A stretch of 64,000 nt of DNA from Eledone cirrhosa. Lineage: Eukaryota. Every line of letters begins with the position of its first letter. Position 1 is the stretch's first letter. A program made the translations under genes and the position numbers. The stretch spans positions 321,036,001 to 321,100,000 of the forward strand of contig OZ024741.1 of the NCBI GenBank assembly GCA_964016885.1. Reading direction: 5' to 3'. Below, one piece after another: positions 37,551 to 40,698 of this stretch. The notes beneath the pieces were generated by a model. That model searched no databases. It saw only the letters and a program-made list of their open reading frames with translations, and had not been told where the DNA came from.

Positions 37551-38082
37551 ACTCTTTTCCTGCTATATCAAACGTTAAAATATTATATTTCTTCAATGTA
37601 CTGCCGTTTGCTTTGTTATTTCTGTTTATCTTTTACACACACACGCACACACACACAAAGACAAACACACACACAAATATATATATATATATATATATAT
37701 ATATATATATATATATATATATATATATATACATATACATATATATATATACATATATATATACATATATGTATATTTATACATATATATATATATATAT
37801 ATATATATATATATATATATATATATATATATATATATATATATATATATATTTATATATATATATATATATATATATATAAGTATGTATACGTATTTAC
37901 ATATATGTATACAGACGTACAGTAGTATGTATATATATACATACATGCACACATATATATGGACGTATGGATTTACCGAACATTTATTATAATGCTCGGT
38001 GTGTTTGTAAACAAACATCCCGAATTAAGCCCTACAGTGTTTAGCAGCCATCGTTGCCCTTTTGTTCAACACAGACAAAGGA

Positions 38083-38125
38083 ACGATGTACTAGTTTCAA
38101 GCTTATTAGCTATCGTCAGCACCGT
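38083..38125 (-). ncRNA. Type I hammerhead ribozyme, unit 1
   Basis: ACGGTG-CTGACGA-T-AGCT aata AGCT-T-GAAA-CTAG-TA-CATCGT; palindromic ACTAGT stem III; GUA triplet; U10.1-U11.1. Confidence 0.85.
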
Positions 38126-38507
38126 ATACCTTCCTGCCAGATGATTGAACGTCTGAAAGTATATACTTTCCTTATGCATATTAACGGCTGAGCAGCCTAA
38201 TTTGCATATCGAGTGAGTTAATCGGCCGGACGCACCGAAAACGATAAACGGAAAAAATGAAACGAAATTTCATTTCTCACTCTTAGTACGGCTGTTACTT
38301 AAATATAAGTATATATACGTACATACATATATGTATACAGACGTACGGTAGTATGTATATATGTATACATGCACACATATATATATGTACGTATGGATTT
38401 ACCGAACATTTATTATAATGCTCGGTGTGTTTGTAAACAAACATCCCGAATTAACCCTACAGTGTTTAGCAGCCATCGTTGCCCTTTTGTTCAACACAGA
38501 CAAAGGA

Positions 38508-38550
38508 ACGATGTACTAGTTTCAAGCTTATTAGCTATCGTCAGCACCGT
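38508..38550 (-). ncRNA. Type I hammerhead ribozyme, unit 2
   Basis: Identical to unit 1. Confidence 0.85.
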
Positions 38551-38935
38551 ATACCTTCCTGCCAGATGATTGAACGTCTAAAAGTATATACTTTCCTTAT
38601 GCATATTAACGGCTGAGCAGCCTAATTTCCATATCGAGTGAGTTAATCGGCCGGGCGCACCGAAAACGATAAACGGAAAAAATGAAACGAAATTTCATTT
38701 CTCACTCTTAGTACGGCTGTTACTTAAATATAAGTATGTATACGTACATACATATATGTATACAGACGTACAGTAGTATGTATATATATGCATACATGCA
38801 CACATATATATATGTACGTATGGATTTACCGAACATTTATTATAATGCTCGGTCTGTTTGTAAACAAACATCCCGAATTAAGCCGTACAGTGTTTAGCAA
38901 CCATCGTTGCCCTTTTGTTCAACACTGACAAAGGA

Positions 38936-38978
38936 ACGATGTACTAGTTTCAAGCTTATTAGCTATCGTCAGCACCGT
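38936..38978 (-). ncRNA. Type I hammerhead ribozyme, unit 3
   Basis: Identical to unit 1. Confidence 0.85.
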
Positions 38979-40698
38979 ATACCTTCCTGCCAGATGATTG
39001 AACGTCTGAAAGTATATACTTTCCTTATGCATATTAACGGCTGAGCAGCCTAATTTGCATATCGTGTAAGTTAATCGGCCGGGCGCACCGAAAACGATAA
39101 ACGGAAAAAATGAAACGAAATTTCATTTCTCACTCTTAGTACGGCTGTTACTTAAATATAAGTATGAATACGTACATACATATATGTTTCATATATATAT
39201 ATATATATATATATATATATATATATATATATATATACATATATATACATATATTTATACATATTTCCCACTCTACTACCCTAAGTATTGAGTACTCTGG
39301 TGCGTTATGGTCCATCTGGTTCCTTACCACAATTCCTTTGTTATACATATATATATATATATATACATACATATATAAATATATAAACATACACACACAC
39401 ACACATATATATATATATATATATATATATATATATGTATATATACATACATATATATACATATATATATATATATATATATATATATATATATATATAT
39501 ATATATATATATATATATATATATATATATACATATATATATATATTCATATATATATTCAACTTATACGTTTTTGATGACTTAAACTCTAGCCAATTTT
39601 GAAGTGACTAAATATGTATTTTAAATACTTTTAATATTAATTAATTTAAAAAGGTTTTCTAGTCAATTCTCCGGTTTACATTTCTATCTTTTCTTTTACT
39701 TAACCGCTTGTGACACCTAAGTAAATATACTTGTTTTTGTTTTTCGATCTTCGGTTTATTTTATTTGTTTTTTTACTACCACACGCTGTCTCTCGCATTC
39801 ATGTAATTTCATCAATATATGTCTGTGTATGTCTACCACGTAAATATATATATTAAGCATTTCCTTAGACTTTGTTTGATATTTGATATTAACGTTGTTA
39901 TATCATATCATTTTTATGTAATCGTATTATAGATTTTAATATATGTTATTTGAAGTACTGTTCTGTTATATTTTGTAATATTTTGTGATATTTTGGTAAT
40001 ATTTATGCCAATGTAAAATGACTTGACCTCCGTGTATTTGTTACAATGGTATAGATATTTTTTCAACACAATTTAGTTCTATATGATTTTTTCTTATCCT
40101 GTGTAAAACTTTATACTATTTGTTAACCTTGAATTATATATATGATGTAATTTTGTATATCTTTTGATGCCAATATATTATAATATTGTTATTATAATGT
40201 TATTATAATGTTTTTATATTGTTTATGCACACTGACAGGGAATTATATATTATATTTTATTTTTATTTTTATCTTTATTCTTATTTTTATCTTTATTATA
40301 TTATACTGTAAACAATATATATATATATATTTAAATACTAAATAAGTGTTAGTTTGTGTTTGTACTAATGTATATATGTATAGATATATATATATATATA
40401 CATATATTAAGCTTTTTATTATCACCATCTATTATATTATATTATATATCGTACTGTAATTCTCGCATTATATTACCATTTGTGTTTCAAGTTTTTGCAT
40501 TATACAATATTTGCAATGTGGGTTCAACGTGTTAATCACTTCCATGCTATTTGGTCTATATCTATGTTTGTAACTGCTCACTCTTAATCTTAGCCAACTT
40601 TTCCTTGATATCTTTCCTAAGCTTTAATAAATGTATACTCCATATTCTTGTGAGTTTTGGGCTTGTATTGGCCGATAGTGCTTCTTGTAGCTTTACTT

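Follow-up and report, generated by a model that had tools for sequence, protein, structure and literature searches.

The tandem array considered here, which lies in a window of 64,000 nucleotides of the Eledone cirrhosa genome (the whole stretch of DNA that was analysed), can with good confidence be read as one insertion of a non-autonomous retrozyme, likely made by a Penelope-like enzyme and probably from circular RNA. Judged by its sequence features, the family appears to be a non-LTR retrozyme, and its genomic copies bear evidence of Penelope-type insertion. The array is one of its ordinary, ageing copies, and the feature that tells most, overlooked in the earlier note, is the family's Penelope-type fixed ends and two-armed insertions.

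Repeat finding with TRF places the array at 37877-39187 (period 425, 3.1 copies, 96% matches), and alignment resolves it into 3.07 head-to-tail units (426, 425 and 428 bp, and a remainder of about 30 bases), in agreement with the earlier note, which had described a tandem trimer of ~427-bp units (Table 1). The units have a GC content of 0.37 and differ pairwise by 1.2-2.4% outside the AT-rich part. The array is non-coding and without LTR architecture, with no ORF in or joined to the units; no stop-to-stop frame of at least 150 aa overlaps it, which is a weak test for a 427-bp unit, and it does not contain the RT and GIY-YIG ORF between pseudo-LTRs that defines an autonomous Penelope-like element. 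Unit positions (r1-r428) are counted along the plus strand from the tail end, with the ribozyme cut at r273/274. On the left, the array ends in the family's 'no-tail' fixed 3' end, set against (TA)n, and on the right its truncated 5' side runs into (TA)n; the locus consists of a single arm that starts at the no-tail end and has no counterpart in the opposite orientation. Six U's in a row are also seen ~10 bases before the tail end of the unit.

Table 1. Positions of the retrozyme array, its parts and related insertions in the window.
Feature	Position	Strand	Remarks
Retrozyme array, 3.07 units	37877..39187	-	repeat finding, unit alignment, flanks
(TA)n target, left flank	37677..37876	.	
Unit 1, 426 bp	37880..38305	-	private variants in common with unit 2
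Unit 2, 425 bp	38306..38730	-	octamer mutated
Unit 3, 428 bp	38731..39158	-	
AT-rich self-complementary segment, predicted long hairpin	37877..37965	-	one per unit, just 5' of no-tail end
'Tail' segment between the two fixed 3' ends, internal copies	38244..38305, 38669-38730, 39097-39158	-	
Type I hammerhead 1	38080..38134	-	predicted cut between 38089 and 38088
Type I hammerhead 2	38505..38559	-	predicted cut between 38514 and 38513
Type I hammerhead 3	38933..38987	-	predicted cut between 38942 and 38941
Octamer ATGCAAAT, candidate snRNA-type promoter element	38200..38207; also 39053-39060	-	88 bases upstream of ribozyme core
Short two-armed fold-back in (TA)n	41100..41212	.	+ arm 41100-41166, - arm 41164-41212
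Penelope-like element with inverted arm, in (TA)n	6981-10141	RT frame -	motifs, geometry
Sister hammerhead family insertion, two near-identical arms, units 466-468 bp	13743-14842		motifs 14006 minus, 14511 plus

Changes at r217, r232 and r258 are present in units 1 and 2 and absent from unit 3, and a 33-mer with two of these private changes has 2 exact matches genome-wide, both in the array. Because units 1 and 2 carry variants unique in the genome, local duplication or conversion probably followed the insertion; the simplest history of the locus would be the insertion of about two units and then such a local event, with an assembly effect as the alternative. The private variants rule out the trimer as a pure rolling-circle product.

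The same hammerhead is present in all three units on the minus strand, with CUGACGA starting at 38119, 38544 and 38972. Read along that strand, it consists of GGAA, a bulge, CGGUG (the 5' strand of stem I), CUGACGA, U, stem II, U and GAAA, followed by CUAG, UA, the predicted cut, CAUCG and UUCC. The type I core (CUGANGA, GAAA and UH, with stems I and II) is present; stem II has 4 bp, an AAUA loop and U.U at its base, stem I is bipartite with a bulge, the predicted cut falls after GUA, and stem III is the palindrome ACUAGU, two tracts of which are able to form 6 pairs. This is the identical CUGACGA, U.U, ACUAGU and GUA motif that the earlier note had read in each unit, and its palindromic stem III matches, as had been claimed, the kind described as working in dimers: in the available text of PMC4209133, metazoan type I motifs usually have a stem III of 1-2 bp with a palindromic loop and require a second copy for good cleavage. 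The term 'minimal', also applied to the ribozyme at first, does not fit a stem I that is bulged and extended, as in the canonical type I motifs of metazoans. According to the part of PMC3088659 that was available, a mismatch U10.1.U11.1 occurs as a natural variant of the hammerhead.

A strict type I descriptor has 5 matches in the window (the three of the array and those at 14006 and 14511) and 0 in 40 of 40 local shuffles. In Rfam scans, the array reaches the gathering score of no family, and none of the hammerhead models matches it at E<=10; the Rfam miRNA matches are TA-repeat noise. The circular monomer is predicted to fold far better than shuffled sequences (z -6.9), partly due to the AT-rich palindrome. 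Nevertheless, the predicted folds do not favour the active hammerhead form: the active stem I has a pair probability of 0.10-0.42 in the predicted circle, and a downstream hairpin competes with the active form in the predicted linear context. A hairpin just after the cut, expected by eye, has a pair probability of 0 in the circle, and a related hairpin is found in one linear fold.

The family is large. Genome-wide (3.0 Gb), we found 9,994 exact 33-base ribozyme cores, 8,901 exact tail 30-mers and 3,704 exact (TA)n-tail junctions, against 0 for each reversed-pattern control; these exact-match counts are lower bounds on motifs and are not locus counts. They bear out the view, taken at the outset, of a dispersed multi-copy family. 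For mapping, 140 loci (L031-L170) with an exact core or tail match were taken from the first 49 Mb of C1; they yielded 237 chains, of which 193 were left without duplicates and 189 after dropping 4 that were cut by the locus edge. The 30 best full-length matches (L001-L030) show the same pattern and were left out of the chain counts.

In these copies the ribozyme is under selection. One stem I pair varies on both sides: among 166 units, 74 have U-G, 46 have A-U and 39 have G-U (159/166 paired); the other stem pairs are near-invariant and therefore uninformative on covariation. Compensatory change thus keeps stem I paired, which is selection on the ribozyme structure, and cleavage therefore likely matters in source copies. 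Among loci chosen by their tail only, the core and stems are 96.5% conserved, compared with 93.4% over r151-428; the core is conserved in other genomic copies, where the earlier note would have taken its lack as a refutation.

Every sequence feature of metazoan non-LTR retrozymes that was tested, among them short tandem units each with a type I hammerhead and a GC content below 45%, is present in the family, which on these grounds appears to be such a retrozyme, as had been proposed. In the available text of Cervera and de la Pena 2020 (PMC7229834), metazoan non-LTR retrozymes are 170-400 nt long, and those of the mussel number ~5,000 copies of 350-390 bp; Li, Clavereau and Pollet 2026 (10.64898/2026.07.22.740005) give a size range of 51-972 bp, and only 1 of 9 predicted Xenopus dimers was cleaved in the part of their work that was available. 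As far as these accounts go, the present family is like metazoan non-LTR retrozymes in having thousands of copies, tandem units that are short, non-coding and poor in GC (37%) and that each contain a type I hammerhead, a highly self-paired predicted circle and co-occurrence with Penelope-like elements. It differs from them in a unit of 427 bp, slightly above 170-400 nt and within the range of Li et al., in its mostly sub-dimer, two-armed (TA)n insertions with two fixed ends, in U.U at 10.1-11.1, and in being known here from sequence alone. In open-access papers on retrozymes, octopus and other cephalopods, tails or target-primed insertion, we came across neither the family nor ends of this kind; the supplements of PMC7229834, PMC8557442 and 10.64898/2026.07.22.740005 may list related sequences.

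How the family was written into the genome can be read from its ends. Two fixed points, separated by about 57 bases, account for the starts of 169 of the 189 chains (91 at r1-20, the tail end, and 78 at r50-80, the no-tail end, with 20 starting elsewhere), and the 5' ends are scattered. (TA)4 or longer lies at most 30 nt from the 3' end in 128 of the 169 fixed-point chains and as close to the 5' end in 34 of them. There are 54 adjacent inverted pairs, and in the 40 with both ends classifiable, a tail end is combined with a no-tail end 39 times, two tail ends once and two no-tail ends never (p 3e-11). No recurrent non-unit 5' extension is found among the mapped chains, and target-site duplications are not separable from the TA background (9/39 versus 89/762).

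Two fixed 3' ends that bound a tail, a tail on one end only, 5' truncation, an inverted arm and an AT-rich target are together the hallmarks of Penelope-type insertion, and the family shows all of them. In the available text of Craig et al. 2021 (PMC8557442), Penelope-like elements have a tail on one end, inverted truncated copies and a (TA)n bias, and Frangieh et al. 2024 (PMC11167929) describe a Penelope RT that cuts and extends both strands of AT-rich DNA and starts at two internal RNA sites, the tail being the sequence between them. The two start points of the retrozyme match the two internal start sites used in vitro. The fixed ends and mirror-image arms suggest that a Penelope-type enzyme likely wrote the retrozyme into DNA, and from sequence features we infer that this enzyme is of Neptune type. 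So far as the cited texts were available, the likeness to Penelope-like elements of the Neptune and Poseidon clades extends to a tail at one end only, truncated 5' ends, an inverted arm, insertion into AT or (TA)n, RT starts at two internal positions and a type I hammerhead in sense orientation. In contrast to those elements, the retrozyme has no ORF, its unit repeats seamlessly with no coding body, and its tail is ~57-62 nt rather than 30-40. The strict pairing of one site per arm is a further difference: it does not appear in the accessible text of the in vitro paper, where the strands did not differ in start site.

The enzyme that mobilises animal retrozymes, and circular RNAs as transposition intermediates, are proposed but not demonstrated in the available text of the cited papers. 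Penelope-like elements have been put forward as the mobiliser (PMC7229834), and the support given for vertebrates consists of co-occurrence, shared ribozymes and phylogeny, insertion ends being undescribed in the portion of that work available (10.64898/2026.07.22.740005). The present family provides thousands of natural products with a measurable Penelope footprint and points to two start sites on the RNA and to (TA)n as the target, all usable in the existing in vitro Penelope assay, and its one start site per arm adds a rule for the Penelope mechanism.

The chains also bear on the template. They cross the ribozyme cut site 169 times, with 3 ends at most 5 bases from the cut (3.07 expected), and no tail-to-cut-site junction occurs among the mapped chains. 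A cut linear monomer as template is ruled out by the lack of a 5'-end pile-up at the cut site; the read-through leaves a circle or an uncut multimer as the template. In the available text of PMC11167929, unprocessed RNA was the dominant substrate of the Penelope RT in vitro and ribozyme cleavage was unnecessary; an uncut multimer would therefore explain the read-through equally well. If mobilisation was of Penelope type, we lean somewhat towards circular RNA as the template and give a smaller, still substantial, weight to an uncut multimer.

Alleles at subfamily sites agree in 1456 of 1591 comparisons between opposite arms (91.5%) and in 1905 of 2012 between successive units (94.7%), compared with 53% for random pairs, and 50 rare variants are shared within a locus, 28 of them spanning both arms. 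In the RNA sense, A>G and U>C changes number 12 and 2 among rare variants shared within a locus and 19 and 23 among unshared ones (Fisher p 0.012), and 112 and 79 overall (p 0.02), with C>T and G>A at 177 and 179; the test was run after a lead and the result is modest. The A>G excess fits passage through edited RNA, to which small subfamilies or inter-arm conversion could contribute. We tentatively entertain the possibility, on which we would not wager, that a dimeric Penelope-type RT acts on one ADAR-edited circle and primes both (TA)n ends, with each subunit bound to a start site of its own and both moving round that circle. If this were true, the 427-base unit would amount to a self-sufficient RNA parasite that carries its own snRNA-type promoter, a loading site for the RT and a ribozyme gated by dimer formation, and it would record rolling-circle retrotransposition in an animal directly in the genome.

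It is also possible, if rather doubtful, that Penelope-type insertion started from linear uncut multimeric transcripts of source arrays, with the hammerhead cutting rarely and circles a by-product, if any. Apart from the preference for unprocessed RNA in vitro, this reading gains from mosaic chains: between successive units of 37 multi-unit chains there are 42 subfamily-allele differences, clustered in L130, L151, L093 and L162, and the mosaics concern 9 sites in L130, 5 in L093 and 4 in L162, with L151 also mixed. Such chains count against a pure single-circle origin because one circle cannot give them at birth. Template switching, heterogeneous multimers or later recombination are suggested by these four loci. 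A long array of the sister family near C1:95.94 Mb, with over 30 units listed, could supply multimers, and matching arms would also arise if a dimer used one linear RNA for both of its starts. Against linear multimers stand the compensatory selection on the ribozyme, the agreement between successive units, the rare variants common to successive units and the opposite arm in L105, L143 and L129, and the finding that no position-specific difference recurs in more than 3 loci; moreover, the sample offers few long sources, as 176 of 189 copies fall short of 2 units. Units are closer to each other than to the nearest outside copy in only 5 of 26 arrays, which weighs against the preferred reading, and opposite arms in 3 of 27, the nearest of all other sampled units being a biased yardstick for array monophyly, which is not supported by this comparison; the within-array distance is below the median outside distance in 26 of 26 arrays.

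The search for a partner enzyme touches on another reading, in which an autonomous Penelope-like element has left its pseudo-LTR as an orphan, the unit, and the copies are 5'-truncated forms of that element. The GIY-YIG and Neptune labels used here rest on motifs read by eye, a PF01541 search and what we take to be the features of the Neptune clade. The Penelope-like element in the window, with a 629-aa RT and GIY-YIG-like frame (7433-9325, minus strand; in Pfam, a weak RT match only), a 57-base tail on one arm only (6981-7037) and a CUGAAGA hammerhead-like motif in its terminal repeat, has the same geometry as the retrozyme and unrelated ends, and was rejected as the partner. A second RT/GIY-YIG family, with a Neptune-like cysteine linker and 10,949 exact 27-mers, has two 3' ends ~64 bases apart (23 tail, 5 TA and 2 other, n=30; ends at 12919-13110 of the window, L187:1400-2950 and L191:1400-2820), and its no-tail end, which resembles the last 30 bases of the retrozyme, makes it a candidate partner. 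The geometry of these two protein-coding elements speaks for a Penelope-type insertion of the retrozyme.

This likeness (alignment score 32, 0 of 2000 shuffles, chosen after inspection) speaks for the orphaned pseudo-LTR, as does the relationship of Xenopus retrozymes to Penelope pseudo-LTRs in the available text of Li et al. (10.64898/2026.07.22.740005). However, the likeness is to the no-tail end of another family and is out of register, and it is all that was found among 30 of 150 scored GIY-YIG loci, none of which offered a partner with extended homology or a homologous terminal repeat (0/30, L197 holding only a neighbouring insertion). In addition, 87 of the 189 chains exceed one unit, 13 of them two, and continue into the next unit and not into an ORF, and the absence of a recurrent non-unit 5' extension likewise argues against this improbable origin. 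Most improbable of all is a satellite or minisatellite that multiplied at the DNA level, through recombination or extrachromosomal DNA circles, and whose hammerhead is an inert look-alike. The probable local duplication at this locus speaks for it, but DNA recombination would not be expected to produce fixed, polarised ends with variable ends opposite them, the pairing of tail with no-tail ends, insertion into TA, covariation in stem I or an A>G excess that is strand-asymmetric.

Under the preferred reading, a Penelope-type insertion probably from circular RNA, the units would be transcribed from the minus strand, perhaps from an internal snRNA-type promoter with the octamer. By analogy with known retrozymes, two hammerheads in one transcript would pair their ACUAGU palindromes and cut after GUA to give ~427-nt monomers, which a host ligase would close; a lone circle would resist re-cutting because it is unable to form stem III alone. 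A presumed Neptune-type RT/GIY-YIG enzyme would then cut both (TA)n strands, with priming on the RNA at two internal positions that are separated by ~57 nt and each serve one DNA end, in keeping with the observed ends. Each RT would run for 0.1 to several units, past the ribozyme site, and the two cDNAs would be joined at their 5' ends to give the two opposed arms or single arm seen in the products. Some arrays would later be altered by local duplication, as the variants suggest here.

Octamers are used by snRNA-type promoters. In the retrozyme, ATGCAAAT is 98.6-98.7% conserved across copies, the higher value being that of loci chosen by their tail only, and the site in unit 2 (38625-38632) is mutated; in both retrozyme families its flanks are conserved as well and it is found 88-100 bases upstream of the ribozyme (sister copy at 14411-14418); no proximal promoter element was identified beside it. 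Its context makes an snRNA-type promoter possible. An internal promoter of this type has been reported for newt satellite 2 in the accessible parts of PMC6155905, PMC7229834 and PMC2220036, and with newt satellite 2 and axolotl retrozymes, as described there, the family has in common a short stem III of the type needing a dimer and, in its conserved octamer, a candidate promoter; it differs from them in its invertebrate-type genome, its unrelated sequence and its dispersed rather than mainly satellite distribution.

The sister family in the window has the cut site GUU, and its insertion lies outside TA sequence and shows what looks like a target duplication of 12 bases. With 1,658 exact 28-mers genome-wide, it is collinear with the retrozyme (254 of 478 columns identical) and keeps GAAACUAGU, the octamer context and the tail position, the rest of the sequence having diverged; a self-complementary segment similar to the AT-rich one of the retrozyme is also present. 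At 41.1 kb, the dispersed fragment that the earlier note had placed at 41101-41212 does belong to the same family outside the array, but it is a two-armed fold-back rather than a simple inverted fragment, its arms being r296-362 and r331-379 in opposed orientation. It belongs to a different stem I variant from the array, and it cannot form a ribozyme because it holds only the CUGAUGA half of the core, without GAAA and the cut site.

Minimal hammerhead-like motifs were also seen on the plus strand at 37515-37640 (a CUGGUGA variant) and 40686-40756 (CUGAUGA, weakly matching Rfam HH9 at 28.5 bits); these are probably terminal repeats of other Penelope-like families in the same (TA)n hot spot. At least 4 diverged GC-rich LINE copies (endonuclease and RT), with (GATA)n between them, occupy 41948-53800. 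Finally, a GIY-YIG-like frame recognised by eye (no Pfam match) and then a 231-base inverted repeat, at 56489-57214 and 57957-58753, are likely another Penelope-like remnant.
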